Below are positions 1 through 44,345 of a stretch of DNA of 64,000 nucleotides, piece by piece. A program made the position numbers and the translations under genes. Source of the DNA: Staphylococcus phage S6. The notes under the pieces were generated by a model. The model worked only from the letters and a program-made list of their open reading frames with translations, ran no database searches and was not told the DNA's origin. Position 1 is the stretch's first letter, and each line of letters opens with the position of its first letter. The DNA is taken from the sequence record LC680885.1, one strand, 5' to 3'.

Positions 1-3000
1 CAACACCATCAACGCCATTAGCTTCTACTTGTTTACCTCCACCAATGTACATTGTAACGTGTTCTATATTATCACATAAAATAATGTCACCTGGTTTAAG
101 GTCTTTGGGACTTTTAGCTTTAATTTTCTCAAAAGGCGTATCTCCATTCCAGAATGAATGAGTAGTGGCGTTTTTATCCATATCTAAACCAGCTTTTACA
201 TAAGCTCTAGCTATCAAACTAGAACAGTCAAAAGAATTAGCTCCTTGTCTGTTAGGTTGTGAATATTTTGCACCAACCTGTTTCTTAGCCCATGCAACAG
301 CTTTATCAATTTTGGCTTTTTGACTTCCGCCACCACCACCGCCTCTTTGTATAGGTGGATTGCCTTTAATTATTCCTGTTCTACGTGAGCTTTTGTTTTT
401 TCCTGATGTAGATGAAACCATGTTAGAAAATTTACTAATATCATTTGTATCAGCTATAACTGAACCGGCTCCACCTCCACCAGCTCCTCCACCTTTTTTC
501 TTAGTAGATTTTTTACCAGAACCACTGAATTGTTTGATAAAAGCATTACCAGAAGAAATACGTGACCCTAAAGCAGGAACGCCAGCTCTTTCATATTTAC
601 TTACCCAAGAAGCAGCTGCTTGTTCTACTGTTTTAGTAGTTTTAAGGTGAGATAAGGCAGCACTTTCTGATCCACTTAATTCTTTCCATAAATAATCTAA
701 TTGTAAGTCTAAATCAGACCATTTTTTACCTTTTTCTTTAGCATATTTCATTAAACCTTGTCTACGAGTATTATCCCATTGAGCAATACCAATACCATAA
801 CCAGAAATAGCACTATTAGCTTTTGCTTCATCAAATTTGGCATCTCCTTGAACACGATCAGCTTTCATTCCAGATTCATGTGCAAAGTTACCTAAAACAC
901 CAGCAGTTTGTTCATCAGAAAGTCCTTTATCTTTAAGGAAATTCCAAATTTTCTCTGCACCTTCACCTTCAATTCCGGCTGCATCACTTCCTGAAGATGA
1001 TGCTGAACTTGATGAAGATGATCCAGAGCCAGCCATAAAACCAGCCATGATATCATTCATCATTCCTCCGAGCTTGTCAAACCAGTCTCCAATAGTGTTA
1101 ACTACTTCTCCACCTGGTTCATTTATATCTAATTTAGATTTTTTCTTTTTCTTCTTACTTAGTAGAGAATAAAAAGGAGACATACGCATCATAGTTTCTG
1201 CTAATTTCTTAGGAGCCTTTTTAAGTTTACTCATAAGATTTTTAGGCATTAATTTATTCATTTGATGACCAATTCTACCCATTACTGATAATGGTGAATT
1301 TTTCATAGCTCCGTCTACATCTTTTTTAATGTCGTCTCTAGTTTTTCCTGCTGATTCTTCTACTTGTTTCTTAGCATCTTTGTTAGCTTTATCTGACATT
1401 CCATTCATTTCAGCTATTTCTTTTTTAGCTCTATCAGATGCTTCACTTTCAATTCCTTCTTGATATGAGCTTAATTCTTCTTTACTAGCTTCAGTCATTT
1501 CTTTACTCATATTTCCCATTTCTTCTTCATGACTAGAGAATTTGTCTTTTAACCATCCCCAACCAGATTTAATTAATCCAGTTCCTCCTTGAAGAAGCAT
1601 AGAAGTCATACCAGTTAAATTACTTAAGCCTTTACCGGCTAATGCTAAAGGAGCCATCATTAACATAGAAGCACCACCGACAACTTTTTTAATCAACCCA
1701 CCAAAGCCACTTGATTTTTCTTCCATAGCCATATCAGTTTGATCTCCAAAGCTTTTAGCCATACCTGTAGTTTTCTGAACCATGTTCATACCTAAACCAA
1801 ATGCTGGTTTTACAATTGATTTATATAATCCCATTCCAGCTAATCCTAATAAAGGAGTAGAAGCTAATAAAGGATTATCTTTAATAAAACCGCCTATAAT
1901 TGAAGATTTATCTACAGAACCACCCATTTTAGTATCAACTGAAGGATCAACTGCAAAATTTTCTCCACCAGGTTGAGTTGAATCTAATTTCTCTTGTTCT
2001 TTTTTAGTTTTAGAAGGATGATCATTGAATCCAATAATGCTACCTAATGTTTTAATTGGATGTTTTAATGATTCTATAGGATGAGTTATTGTTCTAATAA
2101 TATCTGGTCCAGCTAATGCCAATGATGCAATTTGTCCAATACCAGGTATAGCATTTACTCCAACACGAGCACCTACTTTAGCTCCTGCTTTAAGTAATCC
2201 TTTACCTACAGCTTTTTTAGCACCTTTTCCAGCAGCCATTTTAGCAGCTCTAGCTTTAAGTTTTCCTTTAAGTCTACTACCTGCACCAGCCATTAAAGCA
2301 CCACTAGCAGCAAATTTGCCAGTTAAAGAACCACCCATGCTAGTTACTTTACCACCTAATTTAGTATTAGATAATTTACCTATTTTTTCTTTAACAAGAT
2401 CTTTACCTTTGTTTTTATATTTATCAAATTTTTCTTTGAGATGTTTATTACCCTCAATAAAATCTTGAGCTTCTCCTACTTTATCTGCAAAATCTTTATC
2501 ATCTGAATTGTCAGAAGATTTAGCTTGTCCATTTTCTAAAGTTTGTTCATTAGGAATAATAGTAGATCTATTATCTTCATCTTTAATATTATCATTTCTT
2601 GTATTATCAGATTTTCTACTTTGATTTGTATTAGAAGATGCTGTAGAAGTATTTTTATTTAAAGTTTGCTCTCTAGGATCTATTTCTCTAGAAACATTAT
2701 CATTAGGTTGATTTACATCACTAATTATACCACTTGAATTACTGTCACTAGAATTACTGTTATATCTTTTCTCAGGTATTTTGCTATTTATTCTAGATAC
2801 AATTTGTTTAATTTCACTTATATCTTTATTAACGATATTGAAGTTAATATTATCGTATACTGCATCTTTATTAGTGCTAAGAATACCACTTCCATTTTCA
2901 TTATTTAATTTAGAAGTAATATTTTTAGAAGTACCTTTTCTTTTATTTTCATCATTAAGAGCATTTATAGAACTACTAGATAGTTTCTTCTTAATATCTT

Positions 3001-4603
3001 TAGATTCTTTATTTAATTGCATTCTAGTTTTAGTTAAACTAGTTTTAGCTTCTTTATCATTAAATAATTTATCTAGGAGAATATTAAATGGATCATTCGG
3101 GTCATTTGATTTAACCTGATCAAGTTCATTGCTTTTATTAATATTTTTAGAAATAATTTCTTTAATCTTAGATGTAGCTTTATTTTTGTTATCTTCATTA
3201 CTGAAAAGATCAATTCCCATTTCAGAAGCTATATTTTCAAATTCTTTAGTAAAACTAGATTCTTTGATAGTTTTATTAACTTTTTCTTCTATATCATCTT
3301 TAATAGATTTAGAAGTTTTAAATGAACCTGAATCATAGTCATAATGAATTTCTTGACCATCTTCTGAAGTTAAACCAACTATTTTGGATAAATAACCAGG
3401 TATAACTGTATTAAGTGTATTATGAGTTTCCACATCAAAAGCAACTTTTTGATGTCTATCTTTTCTGTTAGCAGTTGATATACCACCAGTTACACTATCA
3501 AATATTTTGTCAATTAATTTACTTTTACCTGATTTGACATCCTCAAGAAGATCATCTCTTCTTTTGTCTCTTTTTCGTTGTTTAGTACCATCTTTATCAT
3601 CTTTACCAAAAGGATTAATTTTTTTATTGGCAAATTTACCGACTGCTTTTTCTATAAAAGTATTTTCATTATTAAGGAAATCAAAAGCTTTACCTTTAGC
3701 TACATCGACTAAACCTAAACTTTTGATACCTTGTTTTTTAGAACCAATAACTTCTTTAAGTAATTCAGTTCCTTGTTTTTTAATAAAGTCTTTAGCTTTA
3801 TCTTTGAATCCTTCTTCTTGAGATCCTTCTAATATACTTGATAAAGTTATATTAGATAAGAATAGATCTTCTAATGAATTACTATTTTTAATTTCAGATA
3901 TATTTTTAATTTTAGTATTCTGTCTAATAGCATTACTAGTTTGAATTAAACCATTTAAATTCTGGAACATACTTTCTCTAATACTATCATTAGCTTCTCT
4001 CATTAAGTTAAGATTATCAATCATAGAAGTAAAACCAGTAGTATTTATTTGAGAAAGATTAGATACAGAAGAAGTTAATAGAGCTGTAGATTTAGCAGAA
4101 GAACCGCCATCATTAATAACTGTTGTGGAAGATACTATTCTAGATTTATTATCATCTTCTTCGTCAAAGTCATCAAATTCAAAATCACCATCTAAAGAAT
4201 CATCTGTGTCAGAATCCATATCTGAAAAACTATCGTCAAAACTAAAATCTTCAAAATCACCACCGACATCCATGCCCATGTTATTGAAGTTTTTTAATGA
4301 TTCTTTATCTTGGATTGTTTCTCCAGTTTTAAATGTATTCTTAGTAGATTCTAAAGCTTCTTTAGATAAATCTTTAGTAGATTCACTTATCTTTTGTAAT
4401 TGTTTTTTCTTTTTATTCTTTAATTCTTTGACAGCCTTTAATGGATTATTCTGATCCATCATACGCTTCATGTCATTAGATTTCATTTTATTTAAATTTT
4501 TATTAAATTCAATATCTATATATTTTCTAGAAGATTTAGAGGAGGAGTTATTTCTAAACTCCTTCTCTATCTTGCTAGTGTTAAATTTCTTATCTCTAGC
4601 CAA
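1..4603 (-). CDS. Giant virion/tail-associated cell-wall hydrolase protein, paralog A (C-terminus beyond left window edge); lysozyme-like domain + C-terminal NlpC/P60 endopeptidase domain
   Basis: Minus frame open from 4603 to position 1 (no minus ORF fragments listed there; listed + ORFs 360-4454 are low-complexity antisense). TTG start at 4601-4603 with AGGAGGTGG 9 nt upstream. My reverse-complement translation shows 'GVLGNFAHESGMKADRVQGD..GYGIGIAQWDNTRRQGLMKYAKEKG' (about 560-960, phage tail lysozyme-like) and 'AKYSQPNRQGANSFDCSSLIARAY...HVTMYIGGG' (1-330, NlpC/P60 Cys/His). Shares the 'HPIESLKHPIKTLGS' block and a Gly/Ala/Lys-rich region with the downstream 1992-aa paralog. Confidence 0.6.
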   Translation of the reverse strand, partial: MARDKKFNTSKIEKEFRNNSSSKSSRKYIDIEFNKNLNKMKSNDMKRMMDQNNPLKAVKELKNKKKKQLQKISESTKDLSKEALESTKNTFKTGETIQDKESLKNFNNMGMDVGGDFEDFSFDDSFSDMDSDTDDSLDGDFEFDDFDEEDDNKSRIVSSTTVINDGGSSAKSTALLTSSVSNLSQINTTGFTSMIDNLNLMREANDSIRESMFQNLNGLIQTSNAIRQNTKIKNISEIKNSNSLEDLFLSNITLSSILEGSQEEGFKDKAKDFIKKQGTELLKEVIGSKKQGIKSLGLVDVAKGKAFDFLNNENTFIEKAVGKFANKKINPFGKDDKDGTKQRKRDKRRDDLLEDVKSGKSKLIDKIFDSVTGGISTANRKDRHQKVAFDVETHNTLNTVIPGYLSKIVGLTSEDGQEIHYDYDSGSFKTSKSIKDDIEEKVNKTIKESSFTKEFENIASEMGIDLFSNEDNKNKATSKIKEIISKNINKSNELDQVKSNDPNDPFNILLDKLFNDKEAKTSLTKTRMQLNKESKDIKKKLSSSSINALNDENKRKGTSKNITSKLNNENGSGILSTNKDAVYDNINFNIVNKDISEIKQIVSRINSKIPEKRYNSNSSDSNSSGIISDVNQPNDNVSREIDPREQTLNKNTSTASSNTNQSRKSDNTRNDNIKDEDNRSTIIPNEQTLENGQAKSSDNSDDKDFADKVGEAQDFIEGNKHLKEKFDKYKNKGKDLVKEKIGKLSNTKLGGKVTSMGGSLTGKFAASGALMAGAGSRLKGKLKARAAKMAAGKGAKKAVGKGLLKAGAKVGARVGVNAIPGIGQIASLALAGPDIIRTITHPIESLKHPIKTLGSIIGFNDHPSKTKKEQEKLDSTQPGGENFAVDPSVDTKMGGSVDKSSIIGGFIKDNPLLASTPLLGLAGMGLYKSIVKPAFGLGMNMVQKTTGMAKSFGDQTDMAMEEKSSGFGGLIKKVVGGASMLMMAPLALAGKGLSNLTGMTSMLLQGGTGLIKSGWGWLKDKFSSHEEEMGNMSKEMTEASKEELSSYQEGIESEASDRAKKEIAEMNGMSDKANKDAKKQVEESAGKTRDDIKKDVDGAMKNSPLSVMGRIGHQMNKLMPKNLMSKLKKAPKKLAETMMRMSPFYSLLSKKKKKKSKLDINEPGGEVVNTIGDWFDKLGGMMNDIMAGFMAGSGSSSSSSASSSGSDAAGIEGEGAEKIWNFLKDKGLSDEQTAGVLGNFAHESGMKADRVQGDAKFDEAKANSAISGYGIGIAQWDNTRRQGLMKYAKEKGKKWSDLDLQLDYLWKELSGSESAALSHLKTTKTVEQAAASWVSKYERAGVPALGSRISSGNAFIKQFSGSGKKSTKKKGGGAGGGGAGSVIADTNDISKFSNMVSSTSGKNKSSRRTGIIKGNPPIQRGGGGGGSQKAKIDKAVAWAKKQVGAKYSQPNRQGANSFDCSSLIARAYVKAGLDMDKNATTHSFWNGDTPFEKIKAKSPKDLKPGDIILCDNIEHVTMYIGGGKQVEANGVDGV

Positions 4604-4626
4604 TTATTAGTTCCACCTCCTGCTAT

Positions 4627-7600
4627 CTATTTCAATTCTTCTAATAAACGGTCTAATTCTTTAGTAGAAGCTAATGTATTTCTATCTATATTAGCTAACA
4701 TTCTTACTAAATCATCTGAATACCATAATTTTTCATAATCATAGGTATAACCAGAGTTACCATTTTCAATTTTAGAATTTTTATGATTGTTTACAATTTT
4801 ATTATAATGGTTAGTTACTCGGTTTTTACCTTTTATAAATTCTTTATTCACATTTTCATTATTAATGACATTACTTTGTCCATTTTGATAGTTGTTATTA
4901 ACTGTTTTAGTATTTTTACTACCTTGATTATTGACATTGTTATTACCTCTATTAATATTAGAAAAACCACTATTAGCTAATGTTGGTAATTGGAATACCG
5001 GAGGATTTCCGATATTCTTATTATTAGTTATTTGAGATCTTGATTCTTGTGGTTTAGATGGCGATGCTGAAGAATCAGAACTATCTGAAGATTCTTCATC
5101 TCCAGAATCTTCACTTCCAGATCCTGATGAACCTGATCCGGATTCAGATTTCTTCTTACCGGCTTCAGATTTTTTCTTTTCTTGTTGTTCTTGATCGATC
5201 TTTTTAGCTTCTTCATAGTCAATACCGTATATCTGAGCATAACGTTTCATTAATCTATCATTTAATTCTTCTTGCTCGTCTTCATCCATACGGTTATCAT
5301 CACGACCAGTTATTGAACCATACCAAGTACCATTTTTGAAACTATATTCTGAAGCTCCTGGACCTGATTCACTATTTCCTTCTTTATCATCTTCATCACT
5401 TTTAGAAGCAGAAGAACTAGATCCTCCTCCGCCAATAGTCTCTTTAATTGTACTTGCTAAAGCTTTCTTACCTTTACTATTCGGATGAACACCTAAACCA
5501 TCATTTTCAATCATATCAGAACTGGCTTTACTATTCCAGTCTATTACTTTTGAATCTGAACTTTCAATAGCTTTATTAGTTGCTTCAATAATATCAGAAA
5601 TATCAGATCCTTTTCTCTTTTCAGGATCTACATACGTATTAACAAAGTATACATCTGCTTTGTCATACATATCTTCTATTTCTTTAACATTACCTGTAGT
5701 TAATCCTCCATTAGTACCTAATTGCACTATAATTGCATTTTTATCTTTATTGTATTTCTTTTTGTTGGATTCTAATACATTTTTACCATTAGGCGAAGGA
5801 CCTCCACTTGAATAAGTTCTTGAAGGAACTGCATTAATTTGAATTTTACTAACTGATTTTCTTATTTCAGAAGCAGCTCCTGCACCTATGGAGTCACCTA
5901 CCATAAATACTTTATTGTAGGATTTACCTCCACCGCCTCCACCAGTTACCGTTTTAGCTATTTTTCTAATGGCTTCAGGAGTATTACTGAATGGAAATCT
6001 ATCTTTAATAAAATTATCAACTCGTTTTTTAATCTTCTTAATATTGTATATATCTGAATTGTAAATCTTAGTTTTTTCTTTTTCTGCCTTTTCTTCAGTT
6101 TTCTTCTGATTATTTTCTAATTTATTTAAAAGAGCTCTATCATTTCTTACTTCTTTAGCTCTTTGTCTTTTAGCTTCTTTGACTTCTTGTGATTTATAAC
6201 CACCGTCTACCATTTTTACAGTAGGATCAAATGCAGCTCCACCTTTTTTACCTTTTTTAGATTTTCCAGCTTTACTACCTTTGTCTTCATCACTACCGCC
6301 TTTAGAACCTTTTAAAGGAGCTTTAATCCAAGGTGATGGATCTACAGAGTTTTTCTCCATAGCCCAACCGCCTGGTTTACCTTTATTTATTTGGAAGTGA
6401 AGGTGACCTGAACCAGCAGTATTAGCACCAGTGTTACCTGAGATTGCTATAACTTGTCCAATTTTAACTTTATCGCCCTTTTTAACTAATTGTTTAGTTA
6501 AATGCATATACGTACTATAGATGTTACCAGGTGATTTAACTTGAACAATATTACCTCCACCCGGATCGGTGTTTGATCTAATAACTGTACCTTCTACCAT
6601 ACATTTAACTTTTTGACCTGGAAGCATACCTATATCAATACCATAGTGCTTTCCTCCGTTAAATGATAAACCAGAATAGTTACCATATGGTTGCCAAATC
6701 GCAGCACTTGGTATTTTTTTCATCCAAGCACCAACTGTGCCATCTGGTATTTGATTAATAGAACCAGGTACAATTTTCTTAGTATTCATATCTACTTCGC
6801 CAGCTTCACCTGAAACTTCAGGTTCACCGTCTCCACCAGAATCGCCACCACTGGAATTTTTCATTTTAGACATTGCAACAACCATTTCTTCCATTTTAAC
6901 TAAGAAACGACTGAACCAATCTCCGATTTCTCCTTTACCATATTTAGAGAAATCAATTCCGCCTTTAGCTATTTGATACAAACTACCTAGAGGTGTACTC
7001 ATGAACATATCTTTTTGAATATCTTCTTCAGCTTTTGGTCCTGATTTCATTTTATTATCAGTAATTGTTTTAAACATATCTCCACCAACTTTAGCTAGTG
7101 GGAACATAGGAGATGCTCTAAACATTAGTTTAGAAGTACTTAATATTAATCTACCTAAACCTGTTTGATCTTCAGTATGTTTTTCTTCTTTACTTTTAGC
7201 TTCATCTTCTATTTTATCACCAGGATGTTCACCAATTCCGAAGAAACTACCTAATGTTTTAATTGGATGTTTTAATGATTCTATAGGATGTTTAATAGTT
7301 TTAATGATATCAGGAGCCCACATTGCTGCACCAATTACTGGTCCAACAAATGGTATGAATGGTAAGGCTGTTTTCAAACCTGCTTTTAATGCAAATTTTC
7401 CTCCAGCTTTCATTGCACCTTTACCAAATAATTTATTTTTAGCTTTACCTATAGCACCAAAAGCTTTTCCTCCAAGTTTCTTAGCTCCACCGAATAAACC
7501 TTTACCGATAGATTTAGCTCTGTTAAAACCTTTAGAAGCAAATTTACTTATTCCTTTAGTTGCAGCTGAAGCATTCTTTTTATTAAATATTTTAGATATA

Positions 7601-10600
7601 CCACTTTTAGCTACTTTTCCTATAGTTTTACCGGCACTTAATCCTTTTTTAACTAATCCTGCACCTTTACCTATAACCATTTTACCTAAAGATTTAACAG
7701 AAGGTAATTTATCTTTAGCAAATTTTCCAATACCTTTAAATACATTACCTATTTTTTTAGGAGCACCTTTAATACCTCTAAATAATTTTCCTAATCCAAA
7801 TTTTCCAGCTATATTTTTAATTCCGCCACCTATTTTACCTAACATGCCAGGCATACTAGTAAAGAATTTACCTATTCCGCTTGGTAATAATTTAGATAAT
7901 AATTTAGGTCCAAATTTAGCAGCTAAGAATCCTCCAGCACCCAACATTGCAGCGTTACCTAAGAATCCTCCAGCAGATGCTAAGAATCCTTTCTTACCAG
8001 GTTCTAGATCTTTTTTACCATTTTTACCTTTCATTAATGAACCTAATACAGCTGCAGAAGTTCCAGCAAATAAAACTGGCCCCATTTTACTAAAATCAAG
8101 CATACCATTCATCATTTTTTTAGCACCAATGGATTTTTCAGCTTCTCCACCTTTTCCAAAGTTTATATTGCCTCTAATGGATTCAGCAATTTCTTTTTTA
8201 TTGGAACCTGTTATTTTAGACATAACATCTTCCCCAGATTTTCCTGCATCGGCAGTTGAAAGGCCTTGTTTCATTCTTTCTAAAGCTCCAGCATCTTGAG
8301 AATCTTCCATATCTTTTTTAATAGTTGGATCATTGCCAAAAGCAGTTTTAACTAAATCGATTATTGTACTCTTAGCTTTCTTTTCTTTTTCCTCTCTAGT
8401 TAAATCATCTATCGTTTTGCTTGGTTCTTTAGTGTAAGCATCTTTATTAGCTTCATTATTATTAATTGATAATTTATTTAAACCAGGAATATTCTTCATT
8501 AAATCCATTAATGGATTATTATCTATAATACTAGATTGATTTATATTCTGATAAGGATATTCATCATCTTGATCTGGTTGAGTATTTTCTTGAGTTGAAT
8601 TAACTCTACTAGATGCAGAAGAAACCATATCTTTAATAGCACTTGTAGGATTTTCTTTGTATTCTTTAGCTTTACTAACAGCATTAGAAAGACTATTTAA
8701 TTTATCCATTACAGAAGCATGAGCTTCATTATTTCCGTTATTTCCACTTAGAATAGGGAAACTTTTACCTTTATCTATGATACTATTGATCGTATTAACT
8801 TTATTATTAATAAATTCTTTATTATTATTAATATTATCATTACTGAAATTATTATCTAATTTTCTTTCTATTTCTAAGAAAATATTTTTAATTTCTTCTA
8901 AATCACTATTTTCCCAGTTAATATTACCAAAATCTTTAATCTGATTAATATTATCATTATTATTAGATCTAGAATAAGTCGAATTAGATTTATTTAAACC
9001 TTCTATTTCAGTAAATGCCATTATTCTTGAATTATCTTTTTTATCAAGTGTTTTTGAAATAGATTTCTTAATATTGAATAAATCAGTATTAAATTTAGCT
9101 GAATTCTTTTCAAACACTTCAGATAATGACTCAGTATTAACATTTATATTTTTCTGATTAACTATTTCTTTAAGTTTAGAAGTTTTTTGGATAGGTTTGT
9201 CTATTTTAGTTAATTCAGCTAAAACTTCTTTAGTTCTTTCTTCATCATTATCTAATTTAGATAATAATTCTTTACCTAAATAAGTATCTTTAAAATTAAA
9301 TAACGAATCTGATTTAATCTTATCCAAATCTTTTTTCTTAGCCGAACCTCGATTTTCCCAAACACCTTTTCGGTAATTATAGATACTACCTAATTCAGCA
9401 TTATCTGCTAATCCGCCTGAACGACCTTCTTTTTTGGCTATCAAATTACCTTGAAGTCTAGATAAGAAGTCTGGTATAACTTTATTAATAGACGTATGAG
9501 ATTCCATATCAAATTGAACAGGAGTATCTTTTTTACGTTTATTTTTTAGAGAAATTCCACCCTTACCATCACCTAATACTTCTTCTTTAAATTGATCTAA
9601 TCTACCTGAAAGAGCATTTCCTAAATTAGATATATACTTATTATCATTACCAGTTAATCTTTCTAAACCTTTAGTAAGTTTACTATCTTCATCAAGATTT
9701 CTATTAATAAGCATAGAACCTATATTTTGTGGATCAAATCTTTTATTCAATCTATTAAATATATTTTTATTATCGCCTTCAGGATCATAACCACCAATAT
9801 CACCGTAAAGAAGCTTATTAAATGCAATTTTAGCTCCTTGAGTTGCAGCAAATTCAATAGGATTTTTAGCTACACCCATTAACATTGATTTAAGTTGGTC
9901 TCCTGACATCATACCCATTAATAAATTTTCAGGATTAGTTTTCTCATCCAAATATTTTAATAAACTAATATTACCATTCAATATAGAATGTAATTTACTT
10001 TGTTTATTTCTTTTGGTATTTTCTTCCATTATTGTATTTTGATATATACCATCCTGTATTGTACTTAAATTTGATAAAGCTGAATCTACGAGACTGTTAG
10101 TTGCTTGCATTGATAAAGAATAATTATTCAGTGCAATATTTGTTCCAACAAATCCTCTTTGATTTATCTCAGCTAAATTATTCATTGCTACTAGAGGTGA
10201 ATTTGTTATTTTAGATTTCTTTTTATCTGATAAACTAACAATTTCAGATTTAGTCCCATCAGGATTATCAATATATTCTGTTACTGATTCATATTCAGGT
10301 TTTTCATTAGATAATTTTTCATTACTACTTGAAAAAAGATCATTTTCATTAGATTTATTTTTTAGTGTTTTTAATAAATCATTAGTAGAACCTTTAACTT
10401 CAGAAAATTTCTTTAATCTTCTTTCATCATTGTTGAATAATTTTAAACCTGAATCTCCCACTATAGCATCTAATGATGGATTAGATTTTATAAACGCATT
10501 AAAAAGAATACGACCAGTATTTTTAGAAGCATTTTTAATGACAGTTGATTTATTATTATTTTCTAATTGTCTAATATTCTTTTTATTTCTATTATTTTTA

Positions 10601-10605
10601 GCCAA
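4627..10605 (-). CDS. Giant virion/tail-associated protein, paralog B (tape-measure-like): peptidase M23 domain + SGNH/GDSL hydrolase domain, cationic Gly/Lys-rich central region
   Basis: 1992-aa ORF. M23 block 'HYGIDIGMLPGQKVKC..YSTYMHLTK..GNTGANTAGSGHLHFQI' (about 6370-6700). SGNH block 'VFMVGDSIGAGAA..QLGTNGG..DGLGVHPNSKG' (about 5330-5930). Long 'GKxGxxK' low-complexity segment (about 7300-8300). Coiled-coil N-terminal half. Size and position are typical of a tape-measure or tail lysin. Confidence 0.75.
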   Translation of the reverse strand: MAKNNRNKKNIRQLENNNKSTVIKNASKNTGRILFNAFIKSNPSLDAIVGDSGLKLFNNDERRLKKFSEVKGSTNDLLKTLKNKSNENDLFSSSNEKLSNEKPEYESVTEYIDNPDGTKSEIVSLSDKKKSKITNSPLVAMNNLAEINQRGFVGTNIALNNYSLSMQATNSLVDSALSNLSTIQDGIYQNTIMEENTKRNKQSKLHSILNGNISLLKYLDEKTNPENLLMGMMSGDQLKSMLMGVAKNPIEFAATQGAKIAFNKLLYGDIGGYDPEGDNKNIFNRLNKRFDPQNIGSMLINRNLDEDSKLTKGLERLTGNDNKYISNLGNALSGRLDQFKEEVLGDGKGGISLKNKRKKDTPVQFDMESHTSINKVIPDFLSRLQGNLIAKKEGRSGGLADNAELGSIYNYRKGVWENRGSAKKKDLDKIKSDSLFNFKDTYLGKELLSKLDNDEERTKEVLAELTKIDKPIQKTSKLKEIVNQKNINVNTESLSEVFEKNSAKFNTDLFNIKKSISKTLDKKDNSRIMAFTEIEGLNKSNSTYSRSNNNDNINQIKDFGNINWENSDLEEIKNIFLEIERKLDNNFSNDNINNNKEFINNKVNTINSIIDKGKSFPILSGNNGNNEAHASVMDKLNSLSNAVSKAKEYKENPTSAIKDMVSSASSRVNSTQENTQPDQDDEYPYQNINQSSIIDNNPLMDLMKNIPGLNKLSINNNEANKDAYTKEPSKTIDDLTREEKEKKAKSTIIDLVKTAFGNDPTIKKDMEDSQDAGALERMKQGLSTADAGKSGEDVMSKITGSNKKEIAESIRGNINFGKGGEAEKSIGAKKMMNGMLDFSKMGPVLFAGTSAAVLGSLMKGKNGKKDLEPGKKGFLASAGGFLGNAAMLGAGGFLAAKFGPKLLSKLLPSGIGKFFTSMPGMLGKIGGGIKNIAGKFGLGKLFRGIKGAPKKIGNVFKGIGKFAKDKLPSVKSLGKMVIGKGAGLVKKGLSAGKTIGKVAKSGISKIFNKKNASAATKGISKFASKGFNRAKSIGKGLFGGAKKLGGKAFGAIGKAKNKLFGKGAMKAGGKFALKAGLKTALPFIPFVGPVIGAAMWAPDIIKTIKHPIESLKHPIKTLGSFFGIGEHPGDKIEDEAKSKEEKHTEDQTGLGRLILSTSKLMFRASPMFPLAKVGGDMFKTITDNKMKSGPKAEEDIQKDMFMSTPLGSLYQIAKGGIDFSKYGKGEIGDWFSRFLVKMEEMVVAMSKMKNSSGGDSGGDGEPEVSGEAGEVDMNTKKIVPGSINQIPDGTVGAWMKKIPSAAIWQPYGNYSGLSFNGGKHYGIDIGMLPGQKVKCMVEGTVIRSNTDPGGGNIVQVKSPGNIYSTYMHLTKQLVKKGDKVKIGQVIAISGNTGANTAGSGHLHFQINKGKPGGWAMEKNSVDPSPWIKAPLKGSKGGSDEDKGSKAGKSKKGKKGGAAFDPTVKMVDGGYKSQEVKEAKRQRAKEVRNDRALLNKLENNQKKTEEKAEKEKTKIYNSDIYNIKKIKKRVDNFIKDRFPFSNTPEAIRKIAKTVTGGGGGGKSYNKVFMVGDSIGAGAASEIRKSVSKIQINAVPSRTYSSGGPSPNGKNVLESNKKKYNKDKNAIIVQLGTNGGLTTGNVKEIEDMYDKADVYFVNTYVDPEKRKGSDISDIIEATNKAIESSDSKVIDWNSKASSDMIENDGLGVHPNSKGKKALASTIKETIGGGGSSSSASKSDEDDKEGNSESGPGASEYSFKNGTWYGSITGRDDNRMDEDEQEELNDRLMKRYAQIYGIDYEEAKKIDQEQQEKKKSEAGKKKSESGSGSSGSGSEDSGDEESSDSSDSSASPSKPQESRSQITNNKNIGNPPVFQLPTLANSGFSNINRGNNNVNNQGSKNTKTVNNNYQNGQSNVINNENVNKEFIKGKNRVTNHYNKIVNNHKNSKIENGNSGYTYDYEKLWYSDDLVRMLANIDRNTLASTKELDRLLEELK

Positions 10606-10679
10606 ACTTCAAATTCACCCCTAACATGATTTTCTTAATACATATATGTTTCTATCAGATTCATATAGATTAAATTAAA

Positions 10680-10749
10680 GGATAAAAAAAATAAAATATT
10701 CACCCTAACACAAATAATCCAATTAAGGACTAAATGTGTTAGGGTGAAT
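10680..10749 (-). terminator. Rho-independent terminator (15-bp stem 10698-10712/10735-10749, long loop; T-run on minus strand at 10680-10697)
   Basis: Inverted repeat 'attcaccctaacaca..tgtgttagggtgaat'. Read on the minus strand it is followed by 'aatattttatttttttt'. Lies between minus-strand genes 10755-11423 and 4627-10605. Confidence 0.5.
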
Positions 10750-10754
10750 TAATA

Positions 10755-11423
10755 TTATTTATTCTTGACTACATCTTGTATTTTATTCAATACACTATCT
10801 AAATTTTTAGTATAAACTAAATTAGTAAATAATACATCTAATAAAAATACTATCGTTTTATGAGTGATATAAAATAAATTATTAACTATTTTATCTTGTT
10901 CTTCTTCGCTAATTTCTTCTTTATCTTGATGATATTTTCTATTAGGTAATGAACGTCTACTTAATCCCATATATTCAACTAAATATTCATTTAATTTCGT
11001 TTTAATATCATCAAGTCTATCATAATCACTAATACTCTTATCGTTAGCTAAAAGAAGAGTTTTGTTATAATCGATATTACTTGTTTGAAGAAATTTATTG
11101 TCCATATATTTACTTAATAATGTTGAATTGATAGATATTAAGTAAAGAATAATATCTAATAATTCTTTTGATGCATTATTAATATATTCAAACTTCTGAG
11201 ACTGATTGTATTCAGGATTATTAGTAATTTGATTTATTTCATAATTAAATTCATGAATTTCTTCAACTATTTGAGGTATGAATCTATCTACCATTTGATG
11301 TAATTCCTCATTACCAAAATCGTAACGAGAAATTACATTTACATGATTTATATACATAGCACTTATATCTAATTCAATAGATTCTCTTTTCTTATAAAAA
11401 TGTTTCATTGACAATTCCTCCAT
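10755..11423 (-). CDS. hypothetical protein
   Basis: 222-aa ORF with an RBS-like 'ggaggaattg' context upstream. No recognisable motif. Confidence 0.5.
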   Translation of the reverse strand: MEELSMKHFYKKRESIELDISAMYINHVNVISRYDFGNEELHQMVDRFIPQIVEEIHEFNYEINQITNNPEYNQSQKFEYINNASKELLDIILYLISINSTLLSKYMDNKFLQTSNIDYNKTLLLANDKSISDYDRLDDIKTKLNEYLVEYMGLSRRSLPNRKYHQDKEEISEEEQDKIVNNLFYITHKTIVFLLDVLFTNLVYTKNLDSVLNKIQDVVKNK

Positions 11424-11437
11424 GTTTTTAATTGGTC

Positions 11438-12355
11438 TTATCTAAAACGTTTTTTGTATTCTTCTTCATATTTAGCATTGACATCTGAAACTTTAATATC
11501 TTTACCATCATCTGTTTTAAAGTTATCTTTATCAATTTCTTCACCTTTAATTACTTCTTTATCTTCATTTTCTACTTTAGCTACCATAGCAATATGAGGT
11601 GGTACAAATGATGCTTGTTTAACTGTTTCCATTTTAGCATTATGAATACGACCTTTAATTAATTTACGAGAGAAATGTACATTTTTCATAGTTAATGTTT
11701 TACCTTTAACTAATGCATTTTCTCTAAGTGCATCAATTTCATTAATAATATCACTTAATTCTTTTTTAGAATATCTATTATCTTCTAGATTTGTTACTAA
11801 GTCATTAATAAGTTCTTCTTTAGTATAAGATTTCTCACTGAATTTTTTAACATTTTTCTTTCTACTAGTCATTTTCTTTTTACCAACCTTCTGATTTGAT
11901 TTAGTTTTTGTACTTTGTTTCTTTTCTTTTAATACTGGATTCTTAACTTCTTCTTTAGTCTCTTCTTGCTTAGTTTCTACTTTATCCTCTTCTTGTTTAG
12001 TTTCTTTTTGCTTAATTTCTTTTGCTTTCTCTGGATTTAAACCTGAAGCTGTTACAGTTACTTTATCATAAGAACTTTCTGTTGGAATATCCTTAAGATT
12101 AATTTCAACATCTTTAAGTTCATCTGAATTGATGAAAATTTCTTTTTTATCATAATTAATCTTAATAACATCATCATCTTCAGGAATTAAAACTAAATTC
12201 TTTCTGTCATATTTCTCTGGAATAGTTTCGATATCAAATGTAATTGTATCTCCTTCATATCCTTGTTCTTCTGATAATTTAATCTTAGCTGACTCTAATA
12301 CAGTTAAATCCTCTTTTTCTTTTGTAACTTTCTTTCTTGTAATTGCCATATCCAA
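11438..12355 (-). CDS. hypothetical Lys/Glu-rich protein (possible virion/assembly protein)
   Basis: 305-aa ORF. Highly charged 'KQKETKQEEDKVETKQEETKEEVK' region. First gene after the divergent promoter region. Confidence 0.5.
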   Translation of the reverse strand: MDMAITRKKVTKEKEDLTVLESAKIKLSEEQGYEGDTITFDIETIPEKYDRKNLVLIPEDDDVIKINYDKKEIFINSDELKDVEINLKDIPTESSYDKVTVTASGLNPEKAKEIKQKETKQEEDKVETKQEETKEEVKNPVLKEKKQSTKTKSNQKVGKKKMTSRKKNVKKFSEKSYTKEELINDLVTNLEDNRYSKKELSDIINEIDALRENALVKGKTLTMKNVHFSRKLIKGRIHNAKMETVKQASFVPPHIAMVAKVENEDKEVIKGEEIDKDNFKTDDGKDIKVSDVNAKYEEEYKKRFR

Positions 12356-12395
12356 ATCTCTCCTTATATAAAATAATTTGAAGCTAATATTCTTA

Positions 12396-12441
12396 CTAAC
12401 TTCATTAAAATAATATATATTTATATTATTAATTGAAGTTT
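12396..12441. promoter_or_regulatory. Palindromic divergent promoter element carrying the conserved AT-rich motif on both strands
   Basis: 'aacttcattaaaataatatatatttatattattaattgaagtt' is an imperfect 43-bp palindrome. The + strand copy 12413-12441 ('atatatttatattattaattgaag') and the rc of 12396-12421 ('aaatatatattattttaatgaagtt') both match the motif found upstream of 8 other operons. Sits in the 330-bp AT-rich gap between the minus- and plus-strand blocks. Confidence 0.45.
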
Positions 12442-12701
12442 ATAAATTTTTATTATTAGAGTTTTTCTATGATCCAGAGTATTAATATATTTTATTAATT
12501 AAAAATATATTTATTAATAATATTTATATTAATATTAATTATTAAATTTATAATTACTTACTAATATAAGTAATATATTAATACAAAATTTTAAAAATTT
12601 ATAAATAAAAATTTTATAAAATCTGAATAACCAATTTATATTAATTAAAAAATCAATGACGTTTAAAAATATAATAAATTTGATTGAGGTGTATTAAGAT
12701 A

Positions 12702-13910
12702 ATGGGTTTAAATAAAAAACAAGAAGAAGGATTAAGATTAGCTAAAGAATGGTATAATAATGATAGTCATAGACCTTTTGTATTATCAGGTATTGCTGGA
12801 AGTGGGAAGTCATTTACAATGACTAAAATAATTGATTCTTTAGGCTTACATGAAGCTAATGTTTCTTTTATAGCATATACAGGAATGGCTGCAGGTGTAT
12901 TAGTCAAAAGAGGTTTGAATGCTACTACAATCCATAGAACTATTTATAATCATTTTATGGATGAAAAAACTGGTAAAGTGAATTTTAGATTAAAAGATGA
13001 ATTACCGAGAGATATTAAATTAATAATTATAGACGAAGTTTCAATGGTTCCTATGAAGATGATAGAAGAAATTCAAAGTTTTGGAATACCTATACTATGT
13101 TTAGGAGATCCAGCACAGCTTAAAAGTTTATCAGGAAGAAATGAATTACTAGATAAACCTGATATATTCTTAGATGAACCAGTAAGACAATCATTAGATA
13201 ATCCTATACTTGTTGCAGCTAATTTAGTTCGTAATGGTAAAGATTTAGAATATGGTTCATATGGAGATAATGTACATGTAATTACTTCAGATGAATTGAC
13301 TTTAGATATGTATCAGAATGCAGATCAAGTTCTAATGAGCTATAATAGAACAGTGGATCAATTTAATAGATTCTATAGAAGTCAAATATTAAATATTGAT
13401 GTTGAAAATAATCCATTTCCTAAAGAAGATGAAAAAATTATTTGTCTAAAGAATAATTGGTCTAAAGTAGTTAATGAAGGTAATATAACTCAGTACTTAA
13501 CTAATGGTTTGATTGGTAATATAACTAGATCTGGTAAAAAGAAACCTATGACTAAATCAACTCAGTTGGATTTTAAACCTAAAGGTTTTGAATTAGAAAG
13601 GTTTAGTAGAATATATTACGATGATTTAATTTTTGAAGGTACTATTGGAGATCAACAAGAACTATTTGATTTAAGATTCAAAGATAATGAAATTAATAAA
13701 ATATTTAAGAAACGATATGTAACTGAAATGTCTGATTTTGGTATGAAAGTAAATCCATTTAATTTTGCATACGGAATTACTATTCATAAATCTCAAGGTT
13801 CTGAATTTGATAATGTAATAGTATTTAGTGAAAATATGAGTAAAGATAGATTCAAGTCATTATATACAGCTATTACTCGTGCTAAAAAGAATTTGATTGT
13901 AGTTCAATAA
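12702..13910 (+). CDS. SF1B DNA helicase, Dda/RecD-like
   Basis: Walker A 'GIAGSGKSF', Walker B 'LIIIDEVSMV', C-terminal 'ITIHKSQGSEFDNVIV' (UvrD_C_2-like). ATG at 12702 with GAGGTG 9 nt upstream (track start 12684 is an upstream TTG). Confidence 0.75.
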   Translation: MGLNKKQEEGLRLAKEWYNNDSHRPFVLSGIAGSGKSFTMTKIIDSLGLHEANVSFIAYTGMAAGVLVKRGLNATTIHRTIYNHFMDEKTGKVNFRLKDELPRDIKLIIIDEVSMVPMKMIEEIQSFGIPILCLGDPAQLKSLSGRNELLDKPDIFLDEPVRQSLDNPILVAANLVRNGKDLEYGSYGDNVHVITSDELTLDMYQNADQVLMSYNRTVDQFNRFYRSQILNIDVENNPFPKEDEKIICLKNNWSKVVNEGNITQYLTNGLIGNITRSGKKKPMTKSTQLDFKPKGFELERFSRIYYDDLIFEGTIGDQQELFDLRFKDNEINKIFKKRYVTEMSDFGMKVNPFNFAYGITIHKSQGSEFDNVIVFSENMSKDRFKSLYTAITRAKKNLIVVQ

Positions 13911-13930
13911 TATGTATAAGGATGATATAA

Positions 13931-14182
13931 GTGGATAATAATAATGTAAGTAGTAAAATCAATAAAAATCAATTACAAACAGCAATGAATAATATGTCTA
14001 AAAATATAAATGGTATAAGTAGAAAGATAACAGGACAAGATAAAATTGATGAAATTAATAAACTTAAAAGAGAAAATGAAGAATTACATCGTTTTCTCTT
14101 TAAGATCTATCAAGATGATGAATTTGATAGGAAAGAATTGAAGAAAATTATATTTAAAGATGTAAATAAAAAATTTAAATAA
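13931..14182 (+). CDS. small coiled-coil protein, member 1 of an 8-gene array (ends ..KDVNKKFK)
   Basis: 83 aa, heptad-rich. Tightly packed with the following genes. Confidence 0.5.
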   Translation: MDNNNVSSKINKNQLQTAMNNMSKNINGISRKITGQDKIDEINKLKRENEELHRFLFKIYQDDEFDRKELKKIIFKDVNKKFK

Positions 14183-14184
14183 GG

Positions 14185-14391
14185 GTGATTAATTTGAATT
14201 CAGATATCCGAATAGATAGAAGTGGCCTTTATATACAATCTAATGAGAAGCAGATGAAAGGACAAATTAAAATTATAGAAGAAAACAAAAAATTAAAAGA
14301 TTTTATTATTGATATTAAAAATAATGGTGGCTATGATGAAAAGGAATTAAATAAAATAGTAAATGAAATTGTTAAGGAGAATTTAAAATAA
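14185..14391 (+). CDS. small coiled-coil protein (ends ..IVKENLK)
   Basis: 68 aa. Stop overlaps the next start (TAATG). Confidence 0.45.
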   Translation: MINLNSDIRIDRSGLYIQSNEKQMKGQIKIIEENKKLKDFIIDIKNNGGYDEKELNKIVNEIVKENLK

Positions 14392-14846
14392 TGTCAAATG
14401 AAAAAGTTATTGCTAAAGAATTAACGTTAGACCAGAAAATTAAAATGTTAGAACCAAAGATAGATGAAGAGACTTATTTAAGACCATTAAGTCAAGTGGA
14501 TGAGTCTTTTTATAATGAAGTTATTAAAGATGAATTAATTGAGAAAATTAATAATGAAGACCATAAATTTGAAAATAATTTCGATTATCATATATTTAAA
14601 AATGGACCAATACAATTACTAGGTTTCATTTATAAATTTGAATTTAATGAAAATGCAGTAAATGTTAAAAAAGAAAAACCTAATGAAGGTAATATCTATT
14701 TTGGAAGCTTTATATTAAATAATAAAAATAAAAAAGATGATTCAATATATTTACTTAGAGTTGATAGCAGCTTAGTTGATTTTAGTCTATTAGAAAATAA
14801 AAAATATAAAGAATTTGGTAGAAACTTATTTAAATTAATTAAATAG
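14391..14846 (+). CDS. hypothetical protein
   Basis: 151 aa. Translationally coupled to the neighbouring small genes. Confidence 0.5.
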   Translation: MSNEKVIAKELTLDQKIKMLEPKIDEETYLRPLSQVDESFYNEVIKDELIEKINNEDHKFENNFDYHIFKNGPIQLLGFIYKFEFNENAVNVKKEKPNEGNIYFGSFILNNKNKKDDSIYLLRVDSSLVDFSLLENKKYKEFGRNLFKLIK

Positions 14847-14857
14847 GAGTGATATAA

Positions 14858-15136
14858 ATGGATAAAGAAATCGAAGATTTAGCAGGAAAAATAAATAATC
14901 TAGAAATTGACCTTAAAGGGATGAATTACAGATTATCTAATGATAAACAAGTTATTGATTTTGAAATAAATAAAATTAATGAATATATTAAATTTTTACA
15001 TGAAGAAAATCAAAGCATCAAAAAAGAAAATATGTTGTTAAAAGAAGCAATAGTGTCTATTTCTAAACATACAGAATTTAAGAATGATTATATAAATAAA
15101 CTGTCTAAAGAAATTGTTAAAGAAAATTTTAAATAA
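14858..15136 (+). CDS. small coiled-coil protein (ends ..IVKENFK)
   Basis: 92 aa. ATG with AGGAG 9 nt upstream. Confidence 0.55.
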   Translation: MDKEIEDLAGKINNLEIDLKGMNYRLSNDKQVIDFEINKINEYIKFLHEENQSIKKENMLLKEAIVSISKHTEFKNDYINKLSKEIVKENFK

Positions 15137-18439: not shown

Positions 18440-18534
18440 AATTATTTCACTTCCATTCTTATTTTGTTATAATAAATGCATGTTAAAGTTCGAATGAGCA
18501 TATTAATAAAAAACTAAAAATTTCAACTAATATT

Positions 18535-22170: not shown

Positions 22171-22178
22171 TTCAAATT

Positions 22179-22218
22179 ACGTCAATGGATATTAATTTAT
22201 CCATTGACGTTTATATTT
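22179..22218 (+). terminator. Rho-independent terminator ('acgtcaatggat..atccattgacgt')
   Basis: 12-bp perfect stem followed by 'ttatattt'. Confidence 0.55.
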
Positions 22219-22247
22219 AAAATTTTTTACTTAAAGGAGATTAAACA

Positions 22248-36228: not shown

Positions 36229-36882
36229 ATGTTTAATCACAATATCTTACTATATAAACCTATTAGCATTGATTATAATGATTTTATTGAGTTAAACAAA
36301 GAAAAATATAAAAATGATAGAGAATATATTAAAATGATAAATGTATTTAACTTAATGGAACTGTTAAAAATAGACTCTTTTAAAGATAAAACTTTCTTTG
36401 AAACTGAATGTAAATTAAAATTAAGAGGTTATGATGAATATAAAAATATAAAAGTGGTTTACAATCAATCATTAGACAGTGATCCAATATTCTCTAATTT
36501 AAAAAACTTTAATGCAGAATTAGATATTATAAGTAAAGAAAGAGATAATACTTATATGACTGAAGAATTATTATATGAATACAATATGATGAAAATGAGC
36601 ACATGTATAAATGATAAAGCTAACACTATTACAATTAAAATAAAAAATTTCATTAATTCAAATAAAGAAAATTTTAATAACGATTTTGAATTCCTTATTA
36701 AAGAATTTGAAAATAATTTATTAAAGAATTTAACAGACCTCCATAAATATGAAGACTTACAACTTCTAATTAATAGTGAATATCACAGTTTAAAAGATAT
36801 TAGTGTATATAATGAAAAAATATTTAGACCTGCTACTGATAAAGAGTTTAAGAATTATTTAGTTAAAAAAGGATTTAGATGA
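36229..36882 (+). CDS. paralog-family protein (tail ..TDKEFKNYLVKKGFR)
   Basis: 217 aa. Family tail. AAGGAG RBS. Confidence 0.55.
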   Translation: MFNHNILLYKPISIDYNDFIELNKEKYKNDREYIKMINVFNLMELLKIDSFKDKTFFETECKLKLRGYDEYKNIKVVYNQSLDSDPIFSNLKNFNAELDIISKERDNTYMTEELLYEYNMMKMSTCINDKANTITIKIKNFINSNKENFNNDFEFLIKEFENNLLKNLTDLHKYEDLQLLINSEYHSLKDISVYNEKIFRPATDKEFKNYLVKKGFR

Positions 36883-36891
36883 AAATATGTA

Positions 36892-36917
36892 TTAAATATA
36901 TATTATAAAAATGAGAT
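36892..36917 (+). promoter_or_regulatory. Conserved promoter-like motif copy 5 ('ttaaatatatattataaaaatgagat') followed by hairpin 36913-36943
   Basis: Exact consensus. A 13-bp hairpin 'gagataatgaatt..aattcattatctc' overlaps its 3' end. Confidence 0.45.
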
Positions 36918-36975
36918 AATGAATTAATATAATTCATTATCTCTATATTAATTTAATTAGGAGAGTGAAAAAGAT

Positions 36976-37584: not shown

Positions 37585-37598
37585 AGGAGATAGATATA

Positions 37599-38219: not shown

Positions 38220-38232
38220 GGATAGAATAAAT

Positions 38233-38796: not shown

Positions 38797-38813
38797 AATA
38801 AGGAGGATTAAAT

Positions 38814-39437: not shown

Positions 39438-39438
39438 A

Positions 39439-42747: not shown

Positions 42748-42748
42748 T

Positions 42749-44329: not shown

Positions 44330-44345
44330 AAAGGAGATCAATGTA

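Follow-up and report, generated by a model that had tools for sequence, protein, structure and literature searches.

A pair of paralogous tape-measure-type genes in Staphylococcus phage S6 and the predicted OatA-like esterase domain that one of them carries

Tape measures and other tail proteins with lytic domains are well known (PMC5380687), and SGNH domains on the Tal proteins of Staphylococcus aureus siphophages are likewise known. In Staphylococcus jumbo myophages, Korn et al. (bioRxiv 10.1101/2020.12.14.422802) described "two potential tape measure proteins," one of them with PF18013 and PF00877 domains, and the paper on phage vB_SauM-UFV_DC4 (DC4; PMC10638138) noted an M23 domain in the other. 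Here, we analyzed this gene pair in Staphylococcus phage S6, in a stretch of 64,000 nucleotides (nt) from record LC680885.1 that we refer to as the window. The pair, genes A and B, lies at the start of the window (Table 1). The coordinates given for it in a preliminary description were correct; that description missed that both genes lie on the minus strand and that gene A runs past the window edge, which leaves the C-terminal ~425 amino acids (aa) of a protein of 1,959 aa (PALS_2) or 1,963 aa (Madawaska) outside.

We favor, and judge fairly probable, a reading in which A and B form a co-transcribed pair of paralogous tape-measure-type proteins: tail-lumen rulers and ejection proteins that would de-O-acetylate the staphylococcal wall and then cut it. 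This reading builds on selected, co-oriented paralogs that lie among tail genes and on four enzyme-type domains with intact motifs. One of these domains has an affinity to the C-terminal catalytic domain of OatA (OatA-C) and is recurrently fused to lysozyme domains.

Positions 1 to 10700 of the window matched nine records of deposited phage genomes by megablast, all of them Staphylococcus jumbo myophages. PALS_2 was the closest, at 98.8% identity over 100% of the query; identities to DC4, Madawaska, and MarsHill were 97.3%, 96.8%, and 95.8%, respectively. The records of Madawaska_087/086 and MarsHill_087/086 label gene B "tape measure protein" and gene A "tail lysin," while the PALS_2 record gives "tail length tape-measure protein" and "hypothetical protein" for the two open reading frames (ORFs).

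Enzyme-type domains of the two proteins

The preliminary description had called an SGNH/GDSL domain in gene B. The call misses the direct Pfam threshold: the segment scores 18.0 bits against Lipase_GDSL (cutoff, 23.6) and 15.8 bits against DUF459 (cutoff, 27.2), and a word-indexed homology search with the segment gave no match at an E value of ≤0.001. It is nevertheless confirmed by homologs, by a sequence match to OatA-C, by fold, and by intact motifs. When 1.84 billion representative proteins were scanned exhaustively with HMMER, 195 matches at E ≤ 0.001 were obtained, 35 of them at E ≤ 1e-10. Two of the matches (P0019, E = 8.5e-16; P0031, E = 8e-12) themselves pass Lipase_GDSL_2, with 42.8 and 46.3 bits against a cutoff of 32.9. 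All four SGNH blocks are present in B: G1570-D-S1572, the S-R of block II, G-T-N1632, and D1702...H1707. An alignment of the best 150 of the 195 homologs shows little or no variation in GDS, GTN, and the last-block His, and the 2-residue insert between Asp and His in B is common to a large subfamily.

When the S6 segment alone was searched against PDB with phmmer, exactly two chains were found, both of them the C-terminal domain of S. aureus OatA (6WN9, E = 4.4e-10; 6VJP, E = 2.1e-9), with nearly the full domain aligned. AlphaFold modeled the segment with a predicted local distance difference test score (pLDDT) of 38 from the single sequence and of 89.3 from a 22-sequence alignment. The top PDB match of the model in Foldseek was again S. 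aureus OatA-C (E = 3e-9; template modeling score, 0.76 to 0.80 on the target), followed by Campylobacter PatB/Cj0610c, Streptococcus pneumoniae OatA-C, and sialate O-acetylesterases; of 26 matches at E ≤ 0.001, the best 24 are all SGNH/GDSL-type esterases or acyltransferases. We conclude that, as judged from sequence and a predicted fold, the SGNH domain is real and belongs specifically to the peptidoglycan O-acetyl-handling branch of the SGNH superfamily. The specific similarity to the OatA catalytic domain strengthens the earlier guess that O-acetyl groups are its target. A recent capture of the host oatA gene was considered and rejected, as the domain shares only ~25% identity with S. aureus OatA-C, versus 35 to 43% with metagenomic, lysozyme-linked homologs.

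Does the domain add acetyl groups or remove them? OatA-C is a transferase, supplied with acetyl groups by the acyltransferase-3 membrane domain of the same protein, and on its own it is a weak esterase; OatA-dependent O-acetylation blocks lysozymes (PMC5697884). Pfam found no Acyl_transf_3 match anywhere in B, unlike in the true OatA-type matches P0042 and P0045. At the block II position of Val475 in S. aureus OatA, where Val or Ile is invariant among OatA proteins, B has a Pro. The substitutions V460G/A in SpOatA lower transfer 5- to 10-fold and slightly raise esterase activity, so that Val/Ile promotes transfer (PMC5697884). The position is variable in the lysozyme-linked subfamily nearest the phage domain. 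Because B has no acyltransferase-3 partner, carries Pro in block II, and, as an extracellular virion protein, would have no acetyl donor, we infer that its SGNH domain hydrolyzes O-acetyl groups, i.e., that it is probably an O-acetyl-peptidoglycan esterase.

The company that the domain keeps is also informative. Among 150 representative SGNH homologs, 53 also carry a Phage_lysozyme2 domain like that of gene A (BLASTP, E < 1e-5); SGNH precedes lysozyme in 48 of these 53, and some have an M23 domain too. Such recurrent fusion is a domain-fusion argument for a joint task with glycan cleavage. One SGNH-lysozyme fusion protein comes from a Candidatus Saccharibacteria genome, and the homolog P0031 (4,266 aa) combines SLT, SGNH, and a C39-like peptidase. 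The closest nonphage giant homolog (P0003; positions 10001 to 14989 of a metagenome contig) has 1,662 aa, with SGNH at the N terminus and 40% identity to the phage domain. Its gene lies in a conjugative element, alongside genes for a MobL relaxase, an AAA ATPase, and a VirD4/TraG coupling protein, which suggests that conjugation systems of Gram-positive bacteria employ an esterase of this type. The predicted esterase thus appears to recur in proteins of machineries that have a wall to cross.

When nine relatives were compared, the SGNH triad was intact only in S6, PALS_2, Madawaska, and MarsHill. In LY01, SA1, AH12, Machias, and PB50, GDD or GDE stands in place of GDS and the His is missing, while the GxN block and the fold-defining residues are kept; the M23 domain next to the dead SGNH domain is intact in all. 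The dead-triad domain of these five phages looks like a retained pseudo-enzyme.

Perhaps, then, the SGNH domain is not a peptidoglycan de-O-acetylase at all? It could act on another envelope ester, such as capsule O-acetyl groups or teichoic acid esters, or it could be a noncatalytic wall-binding or spacer module. Retention of the domain in five of nine relatives after loss of Ser and His fits this idea, as do the very varied substrates of SGNH enzymes (PMC9487903); the function of the SGNH domains of phi11 Gp44 and 80alpha Tal is likewise uncharacterized. Set against it, OatA-C, the peptidoglycan O-acetyl enzyme, is the closest solved structure whether sequence or fold is compared, with PatB next, before generic lipases. 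Every catalytic motif is present in the S6 copy, and fusion to a muramidase-type domain is recurrent. We regard another substrate or a noncatalytic role as unlikely, though by no means far-fetched, and retain the esterase assignment.

The other enzymes of the preliminary description, an M23 domain in B and lysozyme-type and NlpC/P60 domains in A, all score above curated Pfam thresholds (Table 1). The M23 motifs H1320-YGI-D1324 and H1401-L-H1403 are kept in nine of nine phages; the HxxxD and HxH motifs of the M23 family supply its zinc ligands. The lysozyme-type domain has an H-E-S motif at aa 1242 to 1244 of A, of which E-S is conserved in all relatives, and by analogy with lysozyme and transglycosylase families the Glu is the predicted catalytic residue. 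In the NlpC/P60 domain, Cys1460 (FDCSSL) and His1515 (EHVTMY) are conserved in all relatives, and the full-length Madawaska copy scores 43 bits. An NCBIfam scan added nothing beyond M23 and NlpC/P60 relatives.

Paralogy, ancestry, and exchange of the enzyme cassette

Three blocks of homology join the two proteins, as measured on the full-length PALS_2 proteins. The N-terminal block (B, aa 349 to 583; A, aa 373 to 609) has 29% identity (E = 3e-9), the mid block (B, aa 1065 to 1151; A, aa 804 to 879) has 45% identity over 87 aa (E = 2e-17), and the C-terminal block (B, aa 1749 to 1987; A, aa 1576 to 1801, beyond the window) has 48% identity over 239 aa (E = 3e-39). The blocks are collinear, and in each protein both enzyme domains sit between the second and the third of them. 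The shared PDII...HPIESLKHPIKTLGS block reported in the preliminary description, which is the mid block, is therefore real, and the two outer blocks extend the homology further; the Gly/Ala/Lys-rich segment noted there is also found in both proteins. At the nucleotide level, A and B of PALS_2 are 90% identical over 68 nt of the mid block and 87% identical over 255 nt of the C-terminal block, and the rest is invisible to blastn. Such near-identical blocks amid an otherwise undetectable relationship suggest strong constraint or gene conversion.

The two genes differ at their ends. The extreme C terminus of A is unrelated to that of B, whose last ~50 residues are 78 to 96% conserved across the clade. 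In Madawaska, the C terminus of gene A (7069 to 8000 of that genome, minus strand; beyond our window) contains the C-terminal shared block and long Ser/Gly/Asn-rich, collagen-like G-N-N repeats, which score 27.6 bits against Pfam Collagen (cutoff, 27.2).

Bacillus phages have one giant gene at the syntenic place: AR9 gp203 (1,925 aa, annotated as a tape measure) and BpSp gp263 (1,797 aa). Each lies directly upstream of a homolog of the 483-aa virion protein whose gene follows gene A. Pairwise BLAST aligns AR9 gp203 with A (39% over 80 aa, E = 1e-8) and with B (E = 9e-5), in corresponding places of the N-terminal region. tblastn matches to AR9, BpSp, and Listeria phage LPJP1 came from A only, and tblastn with the N-terminal 1,150 aa of B found nothing beyond the nine Staphylococcus jumbo phages. 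The 483-aa neighbor of gene A is a homolog of phiKZ gp182; in PhiPA3, the gene upstream of the gp182 homolog, i.e., at the gp181 position, encodes a 2,319-aa protein with a phiKZ-type lysin domain.

The three collinear blocks, together with a single giant gene in AR9 and BpSp versus two in nine of nine Staphylococcus jumbo phages, bear out the duplication proposed earlier and show that the pair arose from a single giant tape-measure gene of the kind still seen in AR9 and BpSp. Because A matches the place of AR9 gp203 and the phiKZ gp181 position beside the gp182 homolog, it is gene A, the annotated "tail lysin," that by position continues the ancestral tape measure, and gene B, the annotated "tape measure," is the added copy.

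Did the enzymes come later, as the preliminary description supposed? The cassettes lie between the shared blocks, and that of B bears the mark of block exchange among close relatives. S6 and LY01 B proteins are 87 to 98% identical over aa 1 to 1230 (apart from one ~60-residue stretch at 68%) and 73 to 98% identical over aa 1747 to 1992, but only 30 to 63% identical across aa 1230 to 1746, which is exactly the M23-linker-SGNH cassette. Identity drops in the same way across the B cassette in the comparison with SA1; the cassette of A shows gradual divergence instead. These alignments demonstrate that close relatives have exchanged the enzyme cassette of B as one block, and the idea that different modules were acquired later gains support.

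The S6-type SGNH domain is equally near to metagenomic homologs and to the Machias type (both ~43%), so the likeliest history, as read from these identities, is replacement of a degenerate cassette by an active one in the sublineage of S6. A search for the donor of the whole M23-SGNH cassette gave M23-only matches, the best of which (60% identity) is encoded right after a TMP_3-family gene in the tail module of a siphoviral prophage. Close relatives that differ only in the intactness of the esterase offer a clean natural experiment.

Predicted place in the virion and proposed mechanism

The tape-measure or ejection role assigned in the preliminary description accords with the genomic place shared with AR9 gp203 and with phiKZ gp181, and would follow from homology and synteny with AR9 gp203, an assignment that is itself apparently bioinformatic. 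Is the length of the proteins informative? The residues before the first enzyme domain number ~1,215 in A and ~1,318 in B, and tape measures span ~1.5 Å per residue over their extended part. For a tail of 233 nm, as reported by Korn et al., these stretches correspond to ~1.8 to 1.9 Å per residue; the whole ~1,975 aa would correspond to 1.2 Å per residue, which is compatible too, so length does not discriminate. According to the same authors, both proteins are rich in helix and have transmembrane segments.

Several observations weigh against the reading that we favor. The closest relative of the SGNH domain, OatA-C, is itself a transferase with only weak esterase activity, and for B both the direction of the reaction and its substrate are predicted. 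The five of nine relatives with a dead SGNH triad infect staphylococci: four are recorded with S. aureus as the host, and for SA1 the record gives S. lentus and its paper reports S. aureus. Since dead-triad relatives still infect S. aureus, the predicted esterase cannot be essential for infecting staphylococci and is accessory at most. On the nonenzymatic segments, tape measure (TMP) families of Pfam gave no match at E ≤ 1, and PHROG "tape measure" matches cover M23 or lysozyme stretches only; the N-terminal 620 aa, the PDII region, and the C-terminal 253 aa of B, as well as the mid region of A, matched no credible Pfam family at E ≤ 1. Finally, mass spectrometry of DC4 virions, with very thin coverage, detected 15 proteins and neither giant protein among them (PMC10638138).

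Perhaps only one of the two proteins measures the tail? The other might be a passenger lysin at the baseplate hub or tail tip that has kept the ancestral scaffold merely as an assembly handle and would stop short of spanning the tube. GenBank annotation already divides the pair in this way, one such protein suffices in the outgroup phages, and the stretches before the enzymes differ by ~100 residues. However, B has 1,973 to 2,020 aa and A has 1,900 to 1,963 aa across the phages, with totals within 1 to 4% of each other in all of them, and both proteins share the same N-terminal, mid, and C-terminal blocks, as expected if both make the same tail contacts. If there were a single ruler, synteny would in any case make it A, the one annotated as a lysin. 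We think a single ruler rather doubtful and prefer two tail-lumen proteins.

It is also conceivable that both are head-internal ejection proteins of the T7 gp16 or N4 type. They resemble podovirus ejection proteins in being giant and basic (isoelectric point, ~10 for the DC4 orthologs in the DC4 paper) and in having lysin domains and hydrophobic segments; moreover, their localization is deduced, and neither was among the 15 proteins detected in DC4 virions. Yet a 233-nm contractile tail needs a ruler, no other tape-measure candidate is annotated in the genome parts examined, and Korn et al. identified only these two. In addition, the neighboring genes encode tail and baseplate proteins, and the pair occupies the position of the AR9 tape measure and of phiKZ gp181, which a review puts at the tail or baseplate (PMC5380687). 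A head-internal location therefore strikes us as highly improbable, and we continue with the tail-lumen reading.

The preliminary description had named an unexpressed pseudogene copy as the finding that would speak against it. Both genes are present in nine of nine Staphylococcus jumbo phages, and neither ORF is interrupted over its ~6 kb, even in phages with as little as 52% identity. The ratio of nonsynonymous to synonymous substitution rates (dN/dS) is 0.13 (versus Madawaska) and 0.31 (versus SA1) for gene B and 0.16 and 0.25 for gene A. Each gene has a good ribosome-binding site: the TTG start of gene B follows AGGGGTG by 10 nt, and gene A starts 9 nt after GGAGGTG and 23 nt after the gene B stop. 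Because dN/dS is low, the ORFs are intact, and the M23, lysozyme, and NlpC/P60 domains retain their catalytic motifs, we conclude that, by all signs in their sequences, both copies are functional. The idea of a decaying, unexpressed duplicate, for which nothing speaks beyond the fact of duplication, is ruled out by dN/dS and effectively refuted, with a practically negligible chance of being right.

How might the two proteins work together? Each follows a shared plan: an N-terminal part of ~1,200 to 1,300 residues, the IPxxG/PDII hydrophobic block, an exchangeable two-enzyme cassette, and a conserved C-terminal block. The N-terminal parts, helical and in places about half Gly/Ala/Lys, would stretch along the inside of the 233-nm tail tube. 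Upon sheath contraction, both proteins would exit the tube first and meet the thick wall. There, the OatA-like SGNH domain of B would strip 6-O-acetyl groups from N-acetylmuramic acid, the modification behind the lysozyme resistance of S. aureus, and so would let the lysozyme-type glycosidase of A cut the glycan. The M23 domain of B and the NlpC/P60 domain of A would cut cross-bridges and stem peptides, and the hydrophobic, glycine-rich segments may help to form a membrane passage for DNA.

We put forward a broader idea tentatively, as possible rather than probable: that the phage delivers a peptidoglycan O-acetylesterase, of the same fold family as host OatA, that undoes host lysozyme resistance on behalf of a sister muramidase; that the tape measure is heteromeric, with cassettes swapped as units between conserved anchor blocks; and that the pairing of esterase and muramidase is general for crossing Gram-positive-type walls, as in conjugative elements and Saccharibacteria. 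O-acetylation by OatA is the main reason that S. aureus resists lysozymes, and virion-associated staphylococcal lysins are candidate antibacterials. If B does carry an active esterase paired with a muramidase, that esterase may be a useful enzyme for lysin engineering, and it would account for the passage of a wide jumbo-phage tube through a thick, modified wall.

Gene neighborhood and comparison with known systems

Table 1. Features of genes A and B and of the region upstream of gene B in the S6 window
Feature	Position	Strand	Remarks
Upstream control region of gene B	10606..10750	-	Terminator-like hairpin after preceding gene; AACATATATGTA motif, 10639-10650; Shine-Dalgarno AGGGGTG
Gene B	4627..10605	-	1,992 aa; TTG start; upstream gene; clade-specific extra paralog
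N-terminal homology region of B, aa ~140-583	8857..10188	-	Motif at aa ~360-385 (VQFDMESHTSINKVIPDFLSRL) also in AR9 gp203
Gly/Ala/Lys-rich tract of B, aa 830-1100	7306..8118	-	51% G+A+K; glycine-zipper-like hydrophobic stretches
Shared mid block of B, aa 1065-1151	7153..7413	-	Hydrophobic IPxxG stretch and PDIIKTIKHPIESLKHPIKTLGS; 92% conserved with Machias
Peptidase_M23 (PF01551) of B, aa 1319-1409	6379..6651	-	Pfam, 76.9 bits (cutoff, 28.7); E = 1.5e-21
OatA-C-like SGNH domain of B (predicted esterase), aa ~1565-1725	5431..5913	-	Ser1572, Asn1632, Asp1702, His1707
C-terminal shared block of B, aa 1749-1987	4645..5361	-	GASEYSFKNGTWYGSITGRDDNRMDE...; A counterpart outside window, present in Madawaska gene A
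Gene A	1..4603	-	First 1,534 aa of ~1,960-aa protein; TTG start; downstream gene
N-terminal homology region of A, aa ~179-609	2777..4069	-	VAFDVETHNTLNTVIPGYLSKI, common to AR9, BpSp, and LPJP1
Gly/Ala/Lys-rich tract of A, aa 735-840	2084..2401	-	52% G+A+K
Shared mid block of A, aa 804-879	1967..2194	-	Carries PDIIRTITHPIESLKHPIKTLGS
Phage_lysozyme2 (PF18013; tail-lysozyme type glycosidase) of A, aa 1216-1359	527..958	-	Pfam, 123.2 bits (cutoff, 28.2); E = 1.1e-35
NlpC/P60 (PF00877) of A, aa ~1432-1534	2..310	-	Cut by window edge; Pfam aa 1455-1529, 38.9 bits (cutoff, 23), E = 9.4e-10; Amidase_5, E = 2e-4

The pair is flanked by virion and tail genes, namely those for a gp182-like virion protein, the sheath, and a baseplate wedge. 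Elsewhere, the window contains a split DNA polymerase, pieces of a multisubunit RNA polymerase, a portal, and a baseplate wedge, the usual gene set of the group. In Machias (21766 to 23273), the gp182-like virion protein gene that follows gene A consists of two exons. Between them lies an element with a transposase gene, for which the annotation cites an HHpred match to CasX (6NY2).

Directly upstream of gene B, ORFs at 10755 to 11423 (222 aa) and 11438 to 12355 (305 aa), both on the minus strand, occupy the expected place of tail assembly chaperones. They matched no PHROG or Pfam family, and identity as tail assembly chaperones could not be demonstrated. An intrinsic terminator lies between these two ORFs and gene B, and the Madawaska record annotates a terminator at the same place. 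Right after the terminator-like hairpin, 34 nt upstream of the gene B start, is a copy of AACANNNNNNTA (10639 to 10650, minus strand). We take this motif to be the late-promoter consensus of the related phage AR9, and our reading of 10639 to 10650 as a promoter presupposes as much. Another copy (18473 to 18484, minus strand) lies just upstream of the baseplate-wedge ORF (16211 to 18439, minus strand). In a motif scan, the window held 35 copies, versus 85.6 ± 9.4 in shuffled sequences, a strong depletion.

Farther along, the plus strand carries two groups of tandemly arranged, paralogous but diverged ORFs (36229 to 40050 and 41971 to 45941), with six members of ~200 aa and five of ~260 aa. In full-length pairwise comparisons, they are 25 to 31% identical, and short stretches at the N terminus are nearly the same; all are "hypothetical" in Madawaska.

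How does the pair compare with what has been described? In the available portions of Korn et al. and the DC4 paper, the term "SGNH" is absent, and we found no mention there of collinear paralogy, the single-copy state in Bacillus phages, cassette exchange, or dead-esterase variants. The literature searched, an incomplete set, offered no direct precedent for a phage peptidoglycan O-acetylesterase or for SGNH in a tape measure.

Among single-gene systems, AR9 gp203 and BpSp gp263 resemble A and B in syntenic place, size, and a shared N-terminal motif, and AR9 gp203 resembles A in having a wall-glycosidase-type domain near its C-terminal third. Unlike the A-B pair, both are single copy; the one enzyme domain of AR9 gp203 is of a different family (T6SS_VgrG3-like_C), and it lacks M23, NlpC/P60, and SGNH. 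The gp181-type gene of PhiPA3, like gene A, lies immediately upstream of a gp182 homolog. Briers et al. are said to have characterized phiKZ gp181 as a structural peptidoglycan hydrolase in 2008. Like A and B, this protein is a giant (246 kDa) encoded by a jumbo myophage; it is part of the virion, and its glycosidase domain is C-terminal (PMC5380687). It differs in having one lytic domain, a Gram-negative host, and a single gene copy, and we found no direct sequence similarity between gp181 and A or B. T5 Pb2 is a tape measure with a muralytic peptidase domain for wall penetration, as A and B are predicted to be; unlike them, it is a single protein with one such domain.

The SGNH domain of B has its own counterparts. 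S. aureus OatA-C (6VJP/6WN9; PMC5697884) has the same Ser/Asn/Asp/His arrangement and the same Ser/Gly-Arg type of block II. It is tethered to an acyltransferase-3 membrane domain, whereas the B domain is not, and the two differ in the Pro that B has in place of Val/Ile, at the low overall identity noted above. The virion tail proteins phi11 Tal (Gp44) and 80alpha Tal (gp59) are like B in carrying an SGNH esterase-type domain, at the C terminus. In contrast to B, these are baseplate hub proteins rather than of the tape-measure type, and their domains, of putative activity, match generic GDSL esterases rather than OatA-C.

The closest systems remain the pairs of MarsHill, Madawaska, Machias, PALS_2, and DC4, which are the same genes at 96 to 99% nucleotide identity and are described by Korn et al. 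and in the DC4 paper. The four-domain toolkit of the preliminary description stands, but its novelty was overstated, as two potential tape measure proteins with lysozyme, NlpC/P60, and M23 domains had already been published. To these we add the OatA-like SGNH domain and its frequent fusion to lysozyme, three-block paralogy with single-copy outgroups, reassignment of the ancestral copy, exchange of the B cassette, and dead variants of the esterase. Since the pair and three of its enzymes were already described, the gain is added annotation and a testable hypothesis rather than a new kind of system.

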